DNA from: an uncultured Clostridia bacterium
Lineage (GTDB): Bacteria; Bacillota; Clostridia; TANB77; CAG-508
Reading direction: 5' to 3'
NCBI GenBank assembly: GCA_947385375.1
Contig: CANDKR010000001.1
Span: forward strand, 1,333 to 65,332
Length of the DNA: 64,000 nucleotides
Below the pieces are notes generated by a model. That model did no database searches. It saw only the letters and a list, made by a program, of their open reading frames with translations, and was not told where the DNA came from. Below are positions 204 through 5,327 of the stretch, one piece after another (position 1 is the stretch's first letter; each line of letters opens with the position of its first letter). The translations under genes and the position numbers were made by a program.

Positions 204-240
204 AAAAGGGGTCTATCTATCTAACCCCCTCTTTCTTTCT
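204..240. terminator. Bidirectional Rho-independent terminator (GGGG..CCCC hairpin with T/A runs on both sides)
   Basis: The plus strand reads aaaaGGGGtctatctatctaaCCCCctctttctttct. The minus-strand reading places a U-run after the stem, directly downstream of the gene's stop at 257. Confidence 0.55.
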
Positions 241-256
241 AGGTGTTATTTAAAAA

Positions 257-3200
257 TTATTCTGCTATTGTTATATTTACTGGTTTGCTATATCCTTCAT
301 TACTTGGATTGTAATAATCATAAGTTCTAATCATTGCTCCAGAGATTTGTTCTGGATAATTTGCTCTAAATTCTAAATCTAAATTCAAACTTAAATCAGA
401 ATTCAAATTTCTAATATACAAATTAATTTTGTTATAATTATATTCATATTTTTCAATAATTCCTGAAAGTTCTAATTTTGCTAAACTCTCCTCTATTACC
501 GAACAACCTTGTGGTATAGAGACCTGTATTAAGCCATTTCTTATCGTGTCTTCTGTGTTGTTTGTTACTGTAATGTTTGAATGAATAATATCATTTACTT
601 TTACTGATGTATCAATAGTTTGCTCTACTTTTATCTTTTGTTCTTCTGTGTTTAAATTATCATATTCAATATAGTATTCTTCTACTATTTCATAATGCAA
701 TTTGCCTTTTTTAGCCTCTATTTCGACTTTATTCTCCTCTTTTATGTCTTCAAATACTAATTCATATATATCTAAAGGATTATCTTTAATTTCTATTTCA
801 CGTGCATCATCATTAACTTTAACTTGTAGTTTTTGATTTTTAATATTACTATTTGAATTTGCACAGTTTATAGCTTTTAAAGCAAGTATTGTTCCTTGTG
901 TAGTTGACCATGTTCCGTAAGAATCTTTATGCGCAATAATATATTGTAAAAATGCGTTATTAGTTGAAAGATTAGCATTTGATTTTGTTAATGCCATTGA
1001 AGCTAGTGCTGTTGTTTGTATATTTTGATAATATCCATAGCAACCCCAATAATCTTTTATAGGAGATGTTATATAAGCTCCTCCCTCTTCGTCTTCTTCT
1101 ACTGCTTCCATTAATTTTTTGATAGTTTTACTTGCTAATCCACTATTAGTATTTTCGAACACATTCGCCATTAATGATAAGGTATAATTATCAGTAACAT
1201 CATCTACTTTGTCTTCTAAGTAGTTTACAGACTTATTAAGTCTTGTATCTTCTGGACAAGCCTCAGATAATGCCCATATAATATATGCACTCATTGCTAA
1301 ATTATCAGTTGAAGACGCATTACCAATATAGGTTGAGCCTATTTCAAAACTTCCGTCTAAGTGCTGTTCGCTAAACAAATATTCAATCATATTATTTGTA
1401 ATATTTTCGTCAATTTCATAAACTTCTTTTAAATTAGTAAATTCCATTAGTCCAAAGGCTGTTATTACAGTTTCTGGTGGATTACCACCATATAACGAAT
1501 ATCCGCCTTTTGTACTTGTTTCATAAGTTAATAGTTTTTGATAACCTTTTGAAATGAAATCTAAAGCTTTTTCTTTTATTTCTGGGTCATTTAAGCCTGT
1601 GTCCTCTAAGTATTTAAGTGCTAGTATATCTGGATATAACGATGAAGAAGTCTGTTCAAAACATCCAGTTGGCATTCTAAATATGTTTTCCATACCCTCA
1701 ATTGTTTGAGAAATTACTGATGGATATAATTTTACTCTTAGTTTTCTAGTTCCATCAATTGCAGGTTCAGTTGTAAAGTGGTCTAGTTTTAAAGTTTTTT
1801 CTGCTACTCCACTTGCGACTACTTTAGTTTTCTCAAAGCCGTTTGGACTTACTGTAAAGCTCTTTTCAACAATATCAGAAAGCCCGTTTGCTGATGCTTC
1901 TATTCTTAAAGTATTGTTTCCTGCTTTTATTAGTTCAATTGGTACATAAATCATTTTTGTAGAATTAGATAAAACATCAACTGTTTTGTCATAGTTGTCA
2001 ATTGTAGACCAATCGTTTGCTTTTACATCAAGTGTTACTTTTAATTCTGAATCAGTATAATTATAGATAGTTACTGGTATGTTAGTTTTATCTGTAACTA
2101 CTGAATTTGTAGGCATAGTAAAATCTATGAAGAATTCTTGAAATACCTTAAAATCAGCAGAGGTAAATCCAACTCTACCATCTTTTGTATTTCCTACTGC
2201 TTGTATGTTCCAAGTAGTAATATTATCACTTATATCTAAGCTTGTACTAACATTTCCATTTTTAGCTACTAGCTCTGGTATAAAAGCTAAGCTTTCTAAG
2301 AAAATATTTCTTACATTTTCTGTTACTTCTTCATTTGCACTTGGTGCTGTTTCTGATATTATTTCTTCTGGAACTGAATTTTCTGCTTCTACCCTATCAG
2401 ATTTTTGAGCAGTCGATAATACTCCATCAAAACTTATTTCTTCCCTCATTGAACCACCGCTAAAGCCATCATTCATTACCATATCTACTGGTATTTGTCC
2501 AGCAGCATTTGTGATAGAATTTGTTGAAGAATTATATATATACAAAAATGCCATTCCAGCGATTATTCCTATAATTACCCAAAAAACAGCAAAATTTGTA
2601 ACTTCTGTAGGTGTCTTTTTATCAGAATTTTTAACAGTCCTATTATAAATTTTCTCTGAAAGCCAATATAATACTAAAGCAATAAGGATTCCTACTACTT
2701 CACTATAAATATCAAATGCAGATACTATAACTCCAGTAAGTACATATATAATTTCTGATTTTGTACATTGACTTAGTACAGTTTTTAGCTTGTCCCAAAA
2801 AGCATTTAATTTATATTTTCTTGAAATCACAATCAATATAGTCATTAAAATTGCAGGTATTAATAATATTGCAATTCCAATTGCTTCGTTATATAAATTT
2901 TGAACTACTAAAGCTATTAAAAATATAGAAGCTGGTAATATTGCTAAATTAATAATTGCATTAAATAATTGTATATAATATCTATATAAAACTAATACAT
3001 AAAGTATTATAGTAGCAATTCCTATTAGTATAAGAGTTGCAATTTCTGATAAATTCATTTCATAACATAGGTAATCTCCAAAACATAAGCATATTAATAA
3101 GAAAACGGCCGTTAACGAAATCATATTTACTATAACAGTTTTAATTTTTGGAAATCTACTAGCTAATAATAAATATAGTAAAGCTATTGCTATAACACCG

Positions 3201-5203
3201 AAAATTAATGCTCTTATAATGTATTCCTCTACATCGTTATTACTATAATATGGGCTCGTAGTTTGCGTTATATTAGGAGTTGTAGGTGCTTGTTTTAATA
3301 GTGCAATTCTTAATTTGCTTTCAGCTTTTTCGTCTAATATTTCAGCATATAAATCAGCTGCCGTGACACCTTCTGTAAGCTCTATATCTTGCAAAGCAAG
3401 TTTTATATTATCTATTGATAAATCATTATCTGCTAAAGATAAAATTGCTTCATCTAATATGCTAACTAAAAGTGCTGTATCAATGTTTTCACCATTTTCA
3501 TTTTTACTTGTAAGATTTAAGTTTAGCTTTTCACCTGGCTTATATTCTTCTTTATCAGTTGTAACTGCAAGATCTAAAGTCTTATTTGGTGAGATGAATA
3601 TAGTCTTCTTTGAGTAAAAGGTTGAAATACTAGAAACAGAACTATCATAACGAACAATGCTATTTACTGGCATAACATCATCATAGTAATAATTATAATA
3701 ATCTAGTCTATTTTTTGAGTATATATCAATTAAACCATAAGTATCTTCTAAATTAAAAGTAACTTCATCTGAATCTGTTGAAATAACTTTTAATAGTTCT
3801 TCATTTTTACAAATATAAATTTCTTTTTTTGAAGTATCTGTTGTTCCTTTTAAGTTCAATGTGATATCTTCATTTTGTTTATATTTTACTTTATCTAAGC
3901 TAACTATTGTACCTACATATTCTGTAATATATGTTGGATATCCTGTATTTACAGTATTTCCGTCCATATCAGTAGCAGATATTGTTATAACATCATTACT
4001 AAGTTCATTACCTCTCATTTTTATATCTTGAGCTGATAATTCAAGAACACCAAGACCTGAGTCATCAGTAACAATTTGCCTTGTTATATTACCTAAACTT
4101 GCTTCAATATGAGTTTTTACAGGTGTTCCATCTATATTTTTTGTAAGGAAATATATTTTATTATCTACCCCTTTTACAATTGCATTATTTTCAGGCATAA
4201 CTTCGACTTCAAATAAATCAGTTCCCACATAAACAGTTTTTGAAGCTTCAATTAAATAATTTGAAGAGTCTATTACTTCTGCTTTTATATCATATTTTCC
4301 TGATAAATCTATTTTTTCAGAATATTCAAAAATACCTTCTGCATTAGTAAGTCCAGAAAATTCTTTATCATTTATAGTTCCTTTTACTGTAGCATTTGCT
4401 ACTGGTTCACCAAAGAAATAATTTGCTTTTACAGTAAAGCCTACATCATTTCCAATTAAATATTTATCTTGTGTAGTTTCTAAATTTACTTCAAAAGTAG
4501 GGATTACATATGGATTTACAGTAAATGACTTACTGTTTTTCATAGTTTTTGTTGAAATTGTAATTTTATATTCCCCACTATTTACTTCATTTGCTAAAGC
4601 AAATTTTCCAGTAACAATACCAAATTCAGAAGTTTTAGTTCTATCTATATATACCCTATTTTCATTTCCATCATATATAGAAATTTCTACATCTTCTTCT
4701 AGTGGTGTGTCATCTTTTTTAGAAAGTAATAATGCTCTAAAATTAACTTCATCACCTGGTTTATAAATTCCTTTATCAAGTGAAATTACCGCTGTTTCTG
4801 TTGTTTTATTAGTAATATTTAAGTTTATTTTTTCAGAATCACTATCAAAACCACTTTGAGCAGTAAATATCAAAGTATATTTCCCAGTGTCTAAGTTTTC
4901 AGGTAAAGGTATTGAAAATTTTGCCTTCTCCCCTTCCTCTATCTTATAATTTCCCTTGAATTTTTTTACTTTTTTGTTATTACTGTCGCGCATTTCTACT
5001 GTTATTTTACTTTTTACAGATTTTTCTGTTTTCTTTTTAGTTACTCCTACTACGGCTTCTACTGATCCAGAAGTAGAAAGTTCACTTGCAGTTACTATAT
5101 CCAGTACAAGCTTATTTGTTGTAAAAATCTTGAAACTATTATAAGCACATAAGATTACAGCAACTAGAAAAATCAAAATAAATAATGGTTTTAATTTTTT
5201 CAT
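257..5203 (-). CDS. Alpha-2-macroglobulin family protein (1648 aa). It has an N-terminal signal or anchor, MG-like Ig domains, an internal block of about 8 TM helices, the A2M domain, a thioester-type motif GCFEQ, a TED and a receptor-binding-like C-terminus
   Basis: RBS AAGGGGAAGAAT precedes the ATG. Motifs: DNITTWNIQAVGNTKDGRVGF (A2M domain), PTGCFEQT (CxEQ thioester) and an alpha/alpha-toroid region. A hydrophobic stretch of about 260 aa lies between the MG region and the A2M domain. Confidence 0.8.
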   Translation of the reverse strand: MKKLKPLFILIFLVAVILCAYNSFKIFTTNKLVLDIVTASELSTSGSVEAVVGVTKKKTEKSVKSKITVEMRDSNNKKVKKFKGNYKIEEGEKAKFSIPLPENLDTGKYTLIFTAQSGFDSDSEKINLNITNKTTETAVISLDKGIYKPGDEVNFRALLLSKKDDTPLEEDVEISIYDGNENRVYIDRTKTSEFGIVTGKFALANEVNSGEYKITISTKTMKNSKSFTVNPYVIPTFEVNLETTQDKYLIGNDVGFTVKANYFFGEPVANATVKGTINDKEFSGLTNAEGIFEYSEKIDLSGKYDIKAEVIDSSNYLIEASKTVYVGTDLFEVEVMPENNAIVKGVDNKIYFLTKNIDGTPVKTHIEASLGNITRQIVTDDSGLGVLELSAQDIKMRGNELSNDVITISATDMDGNTVNTGYPTYITEYVGTIVSLDKVKYKQNEDITLNLKGTTDTSKKEIYICKNEELLKVISTDSDEVTFNLEDTYGLIDIYSKNRLDYYNYYYDDVMPVNSIVRYDSSVSSISTFYSKKTIFISPNKTLDLAVTTDKEEYKPGEKLNLNLTSKNENGENIDTALLVSILDEAILSLADNDLSIDNIKLALQDIELTEGVTAADLYAEILDEKAESKLRIALLKQAPTTPNITQTTSPYYSNNDVEEYIIRALIFGVIAIALLYLLLASRFPKIKTVIVNMISLTAVFLLICLCFGDYLCYEMNLSEIATLILIGIATIILYVLVLYRYYIQLFNAIINLAILPASIFLIALVVQNLYNEAIGIAILLIPAILMTILIVISRKYKLNAFWDKLKTVLSQCTKSEIIYVLTGVIVSAFDIYSEVVGILIALVLYWLSEKIYNRTVKNSDKKTPTEVTNFAVFWVIIGIIAGMAFLYIYNSSTNSITNAAGQIPVDMVMNDGFSGGSMREEISFDGVLSTAQKSDRVEAENSVPEEIISETAPSANEEVTENVRNIFLESLAFIPELVAKNGNVSTSLDISDNITTWNIQAVGNTKDGRVGFTSADFKVFQEFFIDFTMPTNSVVTDKTNIPVTIYNYTDSELKVTLDVKANDWSTIDNYDKTVDVLSNSTKMIYVPIELIKAGNNTLRIEASANGLSDIVEKSFTVSPNGFEKTKVVASGVAEKTLKLDHFTTEPAIDGTRKLRVKLYPSVISQTIEGMENIFRMPTGCFEQTSSSLYPDILALKYLEDTGLNDPEIKEKALDFISKGYQKLLTYETSTKGGYSLYGGNPPETVITAFGLMEFTNLKEVYEIDENITNNMIEYLFSEQHLDGSFEIGSTYIGNASSTDNLAMSAYIIWALSEACPEDTRLNKSVNYLEDKVDDVTDNYTLSLMANVFENTNSGLASKTIKKLMEAVEEDEEGGAYITSPIKDYWGCYGYYQNIQTTALASMALTKSNANLSTNNAFLQYIIAHKDSYGTWSTTQGTILALKAINCANSNSNIKNQKLQVKVNDDAREIEIKDNPLDIYELVFEDIKEENKVEIEAKKGKLHYEIVEEYYIEYDNLNTEEQKIKVEQTIDTSVKVNDIIHSNITVTNNTEDTIRNGLIQVSIPQGCSVIEESLAKLELSGIIEKYEYNYNKINLYIRNLNSDLSLNLDLEFRANYPEQISGAMIRTYDYYNPSNEGYSKPVNITIAE

Positions 5204-5283
5204 ATTCTTCCCCTTTTTTACTATTTATCTAATTAAATTATATCTAAAACAAATAGCAAAAACCATTATTCTACAAAATTGTA

Positions 5284-5314
5284 ATAAAAAAGACATACTT
5301 TTAACAAGTATGCC
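5284..5314 (-). terminator. Rho-independent terminator downstream of rho
   Basis: Minus-strand hairpin GGCATACTT-GTTAA-AAGTATGTC followed by TTTTTTATTAC. Confidence 0.6.
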
Positions 5315-5327
5315 TTAATAATTATTT

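Follow-up and report, generated by a model that had tools for sequence, protein, structure and literature searches.

Why a bacterial alpha-2-macroglobulin (A2M) family protein should carry a bundle of membrane helices in the middle of its chain, at the site where a protease bait region would be expected, is the question raised by one gene in a 64,000-nucleotide stretch of DNA from an uncultured Clostridia bacterium (contig CANDKR010000001.1, hereafter the window). A first-pass annotation had described the gene as a single 1648-residue open reading frame, and this was confirmed: the frame runs unbroken along 257..5203 of the reverse strand from an ATG start with no internal stop codon. Database cluster P0001 is near-identical to the window protein (100% identity as listed, with a few residues differing), and the strings SRFPKIK, RKYKLN, DNITTWNIQAVGNTKDGRVGF and GCFEQ were all located in the translated frame. 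The gene and the parts of its product are laid out as follows.

257..5203, reverse strand: complete open reading frame for a membrane-integrated A2M/TEP-family protein, 1648 aa (open reading frame, Pfam, homologues)
5117..5203, reverse strand: K-rich and hydrophobic N-terminal segment, residues 1-29 (hydropathy; N-termini of 20 homologues)
3452..5116, reverse strand: extracytoplasmic MG-domain array, residues 30-584 (Pfam; alignment to the C3 beta chain and the N-terminal half of CD109)
3227..3451, reverse strand: conserved helical pre-TM segment, residues 585-659, LDEAILSLADNDLSIDNIKLAL...LLKQ (conservation; low-confidence helix prediction)
2528..3226, reverse strand: eight-helix transmembrane (TM) bundle, residues 660-892, predicted N-out/C-out (hydropathy, AlphaFold2)
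2336..2527, reverse strand: hypervariable acidic disordered linker, putative bait, residues 893-956 (conservation, composition, predicted disorder)
2027..2335, reverse strand: alpha'NT-like motif (ENVRNIFLESLAFIPE) and A2M domain, covering MG7 and the latter half of MG6, residues 957-1059 (Pfam, alignment)
1718..2026, reverse strand: stretch linking the A2M domain to TED, residues 1060-1162 (alignment with CD109, A2M and TEP1)
869..1717, reverse strand: thioester domain, TED_complement, residues 1163-1445 (Pfam, 1e-39)
1652..1666, reverse strand: GCFEQ thioester motif, residues 1180-1184 (translated frame; alignment)
533..868, reverse strand: stretch from TED to the C-terminal domain, residues 1446-1557 (alignment with CD109 and A2M)
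296..532, reverse strand: A2M receptor-binding-like (MG8) domain, A2M_recep, residues 1558-1636 (Pfam, 4e-10)

Analysis of the domain content with Pfam recovered the full set expected of the family. The MG domains said to precede the bundle were matched by MG2 (4e-23 in three stretches, with the feature placed at residues 139-229) and MG3 (1e-5, residues 232-271), and the alignment of residues ~70-460 to the C3 beta chain and CD109 indicates that the N-terminal MG array is present. The bait-region model A2M_BRD was matched by its end alone, slightly below its cutoff, at residues 535-590. The canonical A2M domain (PF00207; 3e-19, residues 973-1059), the alpha/alpha-toroid TED, the GCFEQ motif and the receptor-binding-like end were likewise all found as first described, and an alpha'NT-type motif precedes the A2M domain, ENVRNIFLESLAF being aligned with human A2M ETVRKYFPETWIW. 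The segments on either side of the TED are presumed, from the architecture of the family, to be the first and second halves of a CUB domain. An NCBIfam search of the whole protein gave no match, and the sole bMG family detected by Pfam was bMG5, at E=0.01 and below its cutoff. The predicted signal peptide stands as an N-terminal hydrophobic segment that is probably an uncleaved signal anchor; its sequence (MKKLKPLFILIFLVAVILCAYNSF) holds no lipobox (VILC does not qualify) and no conserved AXA site, and the N-termini of 20 sampled homologues share no conserved Cys. Taken together, the complete domain set and the intact CxEQ support assignment of the window protein as a genuine member of the A2M/TEP family.

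The same MG-TM-A2M order is kept by more than 200 homologue clusters drawn from independent assemblies in NCBI, ENA, JGI and Logan, and all homologous loci come from metagenome-assembled genomes of uncultured gut Clostridia. A central hydrophobic block and CFEQ are both present in each of the 120 top-ranking homologues, which span 40-100% identity and 1529-1718 aa. These results bear directly on whether the hydrophobic block belongs to the same polypeptide, as had been proposed, or is instead the product of another gene, an assembly error, or a fusion arising from a sequencing error or a recoding site. Frameshifts do occur in five homologous loci (L024, L033, L030, L031 and L034) and a few TM-only frames exist (L048-L053), as an artefact might predict. 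However, the frameshifts are scattered single-base events; in L024, L030, L031 and L033 the break falls upstream of the bundle, which is still fused to the C-terminal half, and in L034 it falls after the bundle. The TM-only frames, for their part, appear mostly to be remnants or partial duplicates of A2M genes. Together with the continuous frame in the window and the same continuous architecture in the independently assembled clusters, this leaves an artefactual origin of the block effectively refuted.

A profile of the family searched against the PDB matched CD109 (5e-78), TEP1 (1e-73) and A2M (3e-72) best, with A2ML1 and C3 also among the matches, and neither ECAM nor Sa-A2M appeared among the 60 best profile matches (weakest E=2e-11). 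The close match to animal TEPs might be read as recent transfer from animals, a reading that was set aside; bacterial relatives lacking TM helices (P0214-P0220) carry the same Pfam set.

The genomic surroundings of the gene are housekeeping in character. In the window the neighbours are rho, divIC, yabQ, yabP, an aspartokinase and a rhamnosidase, so that sporulation genes adjoin the A2M gene, and the homologues lie near gap-pgk-tpi-gpmI, rho, aminoacyl-tRNA synthetases or a polysaccharide deacetylase. No conserved partner gene was found beside the homologues, synteny being confined to one sub-clade and to housekeeping genes; conserved two-component, other signalling or conflict-system genes were not found nearby, and pbpC (PBP1c) is absent among the neighbours of the window gene and of its homologues. 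Two control features flank the gene.

5278..5316, reverse strand: upstream intergenic control region (consensus matches only)
204..229, reverse strand: weak terminator-like hairpin, GGGGTT...AGACCCC followed by TTTT (read by eye, missed by the hairpin scan)

In the upstream region a hairpin (5316-5290) resembling a terminator for the preceding rho gene overlaps a promoter-like TTGTTA-18-TACAAT (5307-5278), and a consensus AAGGGG ribosome-binding site stands ahead of the ATG. The weak downstream hairpin lies ~30 nt past the stop codon. Since the gene has promoter-like and terminator-like signals of its own, it is unlikely to be part of an operon.

Kyte-Doolittle analysis of the window protein detected the N-terminal hydrophobic segment and a single internal block at residues 660-892. 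The block had been described as about 260 residues with seven or eight helices; a hydrophobic TM block is indeed present, and it measures 233 residues with eight segments (665-680, 691-709, 720-738, 749-768, 773-791, 813-829, 836-850 and 870-888, from family-averaged hydropathy of 118 homologues). Averages over the same 118 homologues demonstrate K/R-rich loops after segments 1, 3, 5 and 7 with acidic loops in between, and this pattern places both flanks of the bundle outside the cell, in agreement with the first description. AlphaFold2 modelling of residues 651-900 returned eight TM helices, the fifth with a short break, at a pLDDT of 82 and a pTM of 0.69. The block is the least conserved region of the protein, with 38-46% column identity compared to 50-81% in the other 50-residue bins. 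Its sole invariant residue is Y735, and a Lys six residues further on is conserved across 90% or more of the TM-block alignment, the window protein having Arg741 instead; the pair is located at the cytoplasmic end of TM3.

The bundle matches no Pfam family, and its model (residues 651-900) found no structural match in the PDB and no described membrane-protein family. Nor was the bundle found as an independent family outside the A2Ms. TM-only frames returned by the profile search (P0133, P0143, P0147 and P0151) were considered as a stand-alone bundle family and rejected on inspection. Loci L051-L053 hold an MG1 fragment (55% identical to the N-terminus of a homologue) followed by a TM-only frame; the frame of L050 is 50% identical to the bundle of an adjacent full-length A2M and so represents a partial duplication in tandem; in L049 the bundle and a CUB/TED piece are joined out of frame; and L048 is the sole TM-only frame whose origin is still ambiguous.

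The number of helices is stable across about 200 clusters. Eight is the mode, counted in 126 of the 175 full-length members by a crude counter in which sevens and nines are counting noise, and wherever the count is clear the number is even. Rarer relatives carry four helices (P0211 and P0289) or two helices (27 clusters) at the same site and keep everything else. A lipobox-like motif ends helix 2 in all 27 two-helix proteins and in none of 209 eight-helix proteins, a distribution which suggests that in both clades the site serves to attach the C-terminal half to the membrane. In the two-helix sister clade, signal peptidase II may perhaps cleave this internal lipoprotein signal within a polytopic chain, and such cleavage may yield an A2M of two chains, as in C3, whose alpha chain carries a lipid anchor. 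In the two-helix protein P0210, the 31-residue second segment was split in two by the crude counter.

Eight helices exceed what an anchor needs, two being sufficient in the sister clade, and the bundle may therefore do something more than anchor. Its confident, compact model has no known relative among solved structures, so that homology leaves room for a function of its own. Such a bundle could be a functional membrane module (a channel, a transporter, a lipid- or precursor-binding unit or a signal transducer) whose state changes upon bait cleavage or with the conformational change of the A2M part, which would make the protein a protease sensor or effector, and the stable helix number, the invariant Y735 and the conserved Lys near it would fit this reading. 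However, the bundle is the least conserved part of the protein, and conserved charged or polar residues within the membrane were not found in the family alignment and hydropathy. The cytoplasmic loops do not exceed ~22 residues and include no cytoplasmic or output domain, no Pfam family recurs among 36 members, no conserved signalling partner lies nearby, and relatives with two or four helices retain all else. We consider a functional module of this kind quite unlikely.

Where the bundle sits relative to the bait was evaluated by alignment to human A2M and C3, which maps it inside the bait-region/anaphylatoxin slot of MG6. The conserved pre-TM segment forms the N-terminal part of this slot, residues 957-1057 align to residues 724-825 of the human A2M precursor, directly past the annotated bait, and residue ~980 is aligned with residue ~35 of the C3 alpha' chain. 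Between TM8 and this alignment lies the 64-residue linker; the stretch that directly follows it on the C-terminal side is the one aligned with the point where the human A2M bait ends. The linkers of homologues (67-123 residues, measured over 893-961) are rich in S, E, D and T, have a median net charge of -13 and are hypervariable in both length and sequence. Residues 893-972 have a pLDDT of 25-35 and almost no secondary structure in a model of residues 540-1070, whose overall pLDDT of 58 restricts its use to per-residue confidence. The linker after TM8 is the positional equivalent of the bait and probably the bait itself, where proteases would cut. The first-pass statement that the bundle sits where the bait would be is consequently right as to the slot and needs correction as to the bait: as judged from the alignments, the bundle appears to be inserted at the N-terminal end of the bait slot and does not seem to replace the bait.

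Alignment of 33 sequences demonstrated that G, C, F, E and Q of the GCFEQ motif are each invariant, and CFEQ was present in every homologue checked. At the position of the catalytic His of C3 and CD109, the Clostridia family has a nearly invariant Gly (G1294), which points to A2M-like amine reactivity and not to complement-like hydroxyl reactivity. Human A2M has an Asn at this position. Because the Gly differs from both the His of C3 and this Asn, the reactivity of the thioester is uncertain. These observations bear on the possibility that the activated thioester is used for complement/TEP-like tagging, in which the protein would be bound covalently to some other surface, be it host mucus or epithelium, a rival microbe, a phage or the wall of the cell itself, as a tethered covalent adhesin or opsonin-like marker. 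The top sequence matches include the surface-tagging proteins CD109, insect TEP1 and C3, the protein sits at the cell surface, and a role in conflict between microbes has been proposed for archaeal A2M homologues that contain a TED (PMC8416519). Despite these parallels, replacement of the His behind the hydroxyl reactivity of C3 and C4B, retention of a hypervariable bait-like linker as in inhibitors, and housekeeping neighbours with no conserved conflict-system genes all argue against tagging, which we regard as unlikely.

The explanation that we consider probable is a thioester-type A2M integrated in the cytoplasmic membrane of a gut Clostridium that forms spores and whose envelope is assumed to have a single membrane and no outer membrane, with the bundle serving mainly as an anchor and the linker after TM8 as the bait. 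A signal anchor would start the chain and leave MG1-MG6a outside the cell; the chain would then cross the membrane eight times and re-emerge outside, where the disordered acidic linker would lead into MG6b-MG7-CUB-TED-MG8. The even-numbered bundle would act mainly as a membrane anchor and orienting device. A protease, either host digestive or microbial, would cut the linker at the membrane surface, the C-terminal half would rearrange as in other A2Ms, and the Cys1181-Gln1184 thioester would capture the protease covalently at the cell surface. Thioester formation, bait cleavage and protease capture are steps that we infer, trapping by analogy with the rest of the family. The earlier suggestion of a membrane-embedded protease trap or sensor is therefore retained in its first half, with anchoring favoured. 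Anchoring is better supported than a sensor role, for which the absence of a cytoplasmic domain, the low conservation of the block and the relatives with four or two helices leave little support. A reading in which the bundle forms a new membrane fold with mechanical coupling to the A2M spring is very unlikely; on that view cutting of the linker, which leaves TM8 directly, would free tension and the rearrangement would switch the bundle (for example by pore opening, a change of oligomeric state or signalling), making the protein a protease-gated membrane device and more than a tethered trap.

Helices spliced into the bait slot would represent an undescribed way of fixing an A2M trap to a membrane, one that solves surface retention otherwise than by lipid or partner anchoring and from which the bait would emerge straight from the membrane. 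In this family, complete A2Ms that look thioester-competent are found across a large clade of gut Clostridia. If the trap function holds, these proteins would form a covalent anti-protease shield on the membrane, and since the habitat is rich in pancreatic and microbial proteases this may bear on commensal persistence in the gut. The natural series of two helices with a lipobox, four helices and eight helices could serve to ask how a soluble machine of several domains is turned into a polytopic membrane protein, and the eight-helix bundle itself is without relative among solved structures.

Our literature search turned up neither an A2M with TM helices inside its chain nor any account of A2Ms in Clostridia. 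In the literature consulted, the bacterial A2Ms described are only the lipoprotein-anchored type I and the MagB-associated type II of Gram-negatives (PMC5764988), consistent with the initial statement that known bacterial A2Ms are lipoprotein- or signal-anchored. Type I proteins (ECAM/YfhM of E. coli and Sa-A2M of Salmonella) resemble the Clostridia protein as monomeric bacterial CxEQ A2Ms on the outer face of the cytoplasmic membrane, where they are thought to trap proteases that reach the membrane, bait cleavage giving N- and C-terminal fragments (PMC5764988). ECAM has an N-terminal lipoprotein signal, a pbpC neighbour, a Gram-negative periplasmic setting and domain families of the bacterial type (bMG3, bMG5, bMG6 and bMG10), whereas the Clostridia protein lacks the N-terminal lipobox and pbpC, has the sub-threshold bMG5 match alone and carries an eight-TM bundle in the bait slot. 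Further literature on type I proteins includes PMC4498604 and PMC3328433.

Among animal proteins, CD109, the best solved-structure sequence match, is likewise a membrane-tethered thioester A2M with the MG/A2M/TED/receptor-binding-like set, its tether being a C-terminal GPI anchor. CD109 differs in having no membrane helices in its bait region and a His where the Clostridia family has Gly. Human A2M and A2ML1 share the bait in MG6 followed by an xVRxxFPETW-type motif (ENVRNIFLES in the window protein), a sequence match that is strong from residue ~957 onward, up to the C-terminus, and, as proposed for the Clostridia protein, cleavage-triggered thioester capture of proteases. In contrast, both are soluble with the bait-region domain alone in the slot, and A2M is tetrameric. 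C3 and C4 also hold an inserted module in the MG6 slot, the anaphylatoxin domain, at the site of beta/alpha chain processing, and a comparable split into two chains may occur at this place in the two-helix sister clade, which has the internal lipobox; these complement proteins are nevertheless soluble, with a His-catalysed hydroxyl-reactive thioester, a C345c domain and no membrane helices. Type II proteins, defined by the lack of CxEQ and a six-gene mag operon (MagD/YfaS), are unlike the window protein, which has CFEQ and whose gene appears to lie in no operon. The type II MagD of P. aeruginosa with its partner MagB nevertheless offers a parallel in that TM protein segments, and not a lipid, hold a member of the A2M family at the cytoplasmic membrane. 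MagD has neither a thioester nor a TM segment of its own, whereas the Clostridia protein carries its helices in the same chain as an intact thioester motif.

The A2M gene of the window lies immediately downstream, on the same strand, of rho, divIC, yabQ, yabP, an aspartokinase gene and a rhamnosidase gene, and the yabP-yabQ-divIC set indicates that the host is a spore-forming Firmicute. The gene region has a G+C content of 27-32%. The gene and its flanking signals, each of the latter a consensus match only, are as follows:

257-5203, minus strand: A2M open reading frame, 1648 codons, ATG start, zero internal stops
5316-5290: terminator-like hairpin after rho
5307-5278, before the A2M ATG: promoter-like TTGTTA-18-TACAAT
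5' of the A2M ATG: AAGGGG ribosome-binding site
about 30 nt past the A2M stop codon: weak hairpin followed by TTTT

Judged by these matches, the gene looks monocistronic. No family-wide conserved neighbour was found among the homologous loci; a sub-clade has rho upstream and gap-pgk-tpi-gpmI downstream, and the other loci have different neighbours. Both pbpC and a mag-type operon were absent from the neighbourhoods of the A2M loci. Large ORFs adjoin the A2M gene at several loci (1644 aa from ~13083 onward in L020, and upstream ORFs of 1701, 2272 and 1882 aa in L007, L013 and L018, respectively), none of which clustered with the A2M family. Elsewhere in the window, a peptide-chain release factor gene (11521-12628, minus strand) is split into two ORFs of 149 and 222 aa in different frames that overlap at 12179-12189, the 222-aa ORF beginning midway through the PCRF domain (profile positions 121-193). 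The split does not fall where prfB usually carries its early frameshift, and so could reflect either a true frameshift or an error of assembly.

Pfam searches of the window protein returned the domains listed here, while NCBIfam gave zero matches:

three stretches: MG2 (4e-23)
MG3: Pfam match
residues 535-590: A2M_BRD, end part of the model only
residues 973-1059: A2M (3e-19)
residues 1163-1445: TED_complement (1e-39)
residues 1180-1184: GCFEQ thioester motif, invariant across a 33-sequence family alignment
residues 1558-1636: A2M_recep (4e-10)

The closest PDB sequences were CD109, TEP1, human A2M, A2ML1 and C3, and a family profile searched against PDB sequences matched CD109 at 5e-78, TEP1 at 1e-73 and A2M at 3e-72; A2Ms from E. 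coli and Salmonella were absent from its best 60 matches. These domains and PDB matches place beyond doubt the A2M/TED-like nature of the C-terminal region, which the first-pass annotation had treated as open to refutation. The thioester-catalytic histidine of CD109 aligns with G1294 (about nt 1320-1322), a glycine that is nearly invariant in the family. It differs both from the histidine of the complement proteins and from the asparagine of human A2M, and would argue for an A2M-like rather than a complement-like thioester reactivity.

Kyte-Doolittle analysis identified two hydrophobic regions, an N-terminal segment and a block at residues 660-892. When hydropathy and charge were averaged over 118 aligned homologues, the block resolved into eight segments:

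residues 665-680, 691-709, 720-738 and 749-768: hydrophobic segments 1-4
residues 773-791, 813-829, 836-850 and 870-888: hydrophobic segments 5-8

In these homologues the loops after segments 1, 3, 5 and 7 are rich in K/R and the alternate loops are acidic, so that by the positive-inside rule both flanks of the block are extracytoplasmic, as had been proposed from the single sequence. An AlphaFold2 model of residues 651-900, built from a 36-sequence alignment, likewise contains eight transmembrane (TM) helices with a short break in the fifth (pLDDT 82, pTM 0.69). The N-terminus consists of a K-rich stretch followed by 16-20 hydrophobic residues; neither a lipobox nor a conserved AXA site is present in the homologues sampled, which suggests an uncleaved signal anchor.

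The block is part of one protein rather than a separate gene product. In addition to the uninterrupted ORF of the window, both the central hydrophobic block and CFEQ recur in every one of the 120 top-ranking homologues, which match with full coverage at 40-100% identity and measure 1529-1718 aa, and two further searches brought the collection to about 200 clusters of the eight-helix type. Single-base frameshifts occur at scattered positions in a few homologous loci; the break is upstream of the bundle in L024, L030, L031 and L033, leaving it fused to the C-terminal half, and falls after the bundle in L034. These homologues may be pseudogenes, assembly errors or cases of recoding. The frameshifts of L024 (~9737-9820) and L033 (~9662-9718), from two rabbit-gut MAGs, coincide in position, some 90 residues ahead of the bundle. 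Among species-representative genomes the family was present at 47 loci, every one in a MAG of uncultured Clostridia, some named Candidatus Scatovivens, with mouse, rabbit, sheep, deer, chicken and human (Hadza) guts as sources. An A2M with an internal membrane bundle is thereby confirmed.

Human A2M precursor residues 724-825 (EEPHTETVRKYFPETW...) align with residues 957-1057 of the window protein; the UniProt bait region of human A2M is 690-728, which puts the start of this alignment at the bait end. On the C3 alpha' chain, the counterpart of residue ~980 is residue ~35. Taken with the A2M_BRD end at 535-590, these alignments indicate that residues 600-956 occupy the MG6 slot, that of the bait-region domain in A2M and of the anaphylatoxin domain in C3. 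The linker that follows TM8 (893-956, 64 residues) is the most gap-rich region of the family alignment and ranks among the least conserved; in homologues the segment 893-961 ranges from 67 to 123 aa, is enriched in S/E/D/T and carries, at the median, a net charge of -13. A second, low-confidence model (mean pLDDT 58) gave residues 893-972 a pLDDT of 25-35 and almost zero secondary structure. The bait is most naturally sought in this linker. The earlier interpretation was largely right and needs a single correction: the bundle does not replace the bait, as a putative bait is kept after TM8 in the form of a hypervariable acidic linker.

A search seeded with L042, the family's most divergent member, and next with cluster P0208 uncovered relatives whose insert at this site is smaller. 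Clusters P0211 (residues ~675-790) and P0289 are intermediate forms with four internal TM helices, no lipobox and a G/S/Q-rich linker of ~130 aa after the helices. Just two helices occupy the bait-slot site in a sister clade made up of 27 clusters (P0208 [L054 1670-6022], P0210, P0213 and P0226-P0249), whose proteins are 1432-1589 aa long and in some cases bear the name 'MG2 domain-containing protein [Defluviitaleaceae bacterium]'. Every clear count of helices is an even number; in the two-helix P0210 a second segment of 31 aa was split in two by the crude helix counter. In 27/27 two-helix proteins K/R stands ahead of helix 2, and the helix has a lipobox-like end (LFFLSSCG, LIFLTSCG and the like) that leads into a linker rich in P/A/E; this has the appearance of an internal lipoprotein signal peptide, whereas no lipobox-like motif lies upstream of the alpha'NT motif in any of 209 eight-helix proteins. 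This comparison indicates that the pre-bait site serves to fix the thioester-bearing half to the membrane in both clades, through a lipoprotein-type signal in one and TM8 of the bundle in the other. The two-helix A2Ms could be C3-like two-chain proteins with a lipid-anchored C-terminal chain, or bear the trace of a two-gene fusion. The nearest relatives without internal helices, P0214-P0220, have an N-terminal signal only and 26% identity, scoring 330-345 bits as opposed to at least 659 bits within the family. They are bacterial A2Ms with CFEQ, additional CarboxypepD_reg-like or TonB-plug-like domains and the 'eukaryote-type' Pfam set (TED_complement, A2M_recep), and hence this signature is not unique to the Clostridial clade. 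One neighbouring match, P0217, has CGEQ and is named from Candidatus Acidoferrum.

The bundle itself appears confined to these A2Ms. No Pfam family matched the block, alone or across all 36 members, Foldseek with the bundle model gave nothing better than E = 7 (TM-score 0.23), and a bundle profile searched against 1.84 billion representative proteins matched 45 sequences and no more. The long matches agree with this A2M family in length and match position, and those short matches that were examined are fragments of its members. Four short matches resembled stand-alone membrane proteins, a reading that their loci speak against, since three derive from A2M genes as remnants or as partial duplicates. 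L051 (1890-3080), like L052 and L053 from other samples, has an MG1 fragment and a TM-only ORF; the TM-only ORF of L050 (5143-5772), 50% identical to the bundle of the adjoining full-length A2M, is by sequence a partial tandem duplication; and in L049 (1148-2358) the bundle is joined out of frame to a CUB/TED piece. The fourth, a TM-only ORF downstream of a GGDEF response-regulator gene (L048 6001-6741), is ambiguous. A bundle with a switchable function of its own carries some weight, given that eight helices exceed the need of an anchor and that the fold has no structural match. Nevertheless, the bundle is the least conserved part of the protein (column identity 38-46% compared with 50-81% in the other 50-aa bins), there is no output domain, and relatives make do with two and four helices. 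Y735 is the sole invariant residue of the TM block, and a lysine six residues further on, at the cytoplasmic end of TM3, is kept across 90% or more of the TM-block alignment, with Arg741 as its counterpart in the window protein.

The data show the architecture, the parity of the topology, where the insert sits and the character of the linker, and a membrane-integrated A2M is the best-supported reading. The signal anchor and eight-helix bundle would hold the ring of MG domains against the cytoplasmic membrane, on its outer side, with the acidic disordered bait leaving the membrane at TM8. A protease reaching the membrane would cut this bait, triggering the canonical A2M rearrangement and covalent capture of the protease by the thioester. 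We infer thioester formation, bait cleavage and capture by analogy to the A2M biochemistry of ECAM, Sa-A2M and A2ML1; a rival reading is a role in covalent tagging or adhesion.

On every criterion that can be assessed from sequence, the window protein is a member of the A2M/TEP superfamily. In the literature searched, accounts of bacterial A2Ms cover just the type I and type II proteins of Gram-negatives, and the archaeal homologues described have signal peptides; no description of an A2M with internal TM helices or of Clostridial A2Ms was found there, and an internal membrane bundle in the bait slot is, to that extent, a previously undescribed arrangement. None of three type I features (N-terminal lipobox, pbpC neighbour and bMG domain families) is present, and the CD109/TEP/A2M group is closer in sequence than type I bacterial A2M, yet it is the type I proteins that the window protein is proposed to resemble most in the way it works.
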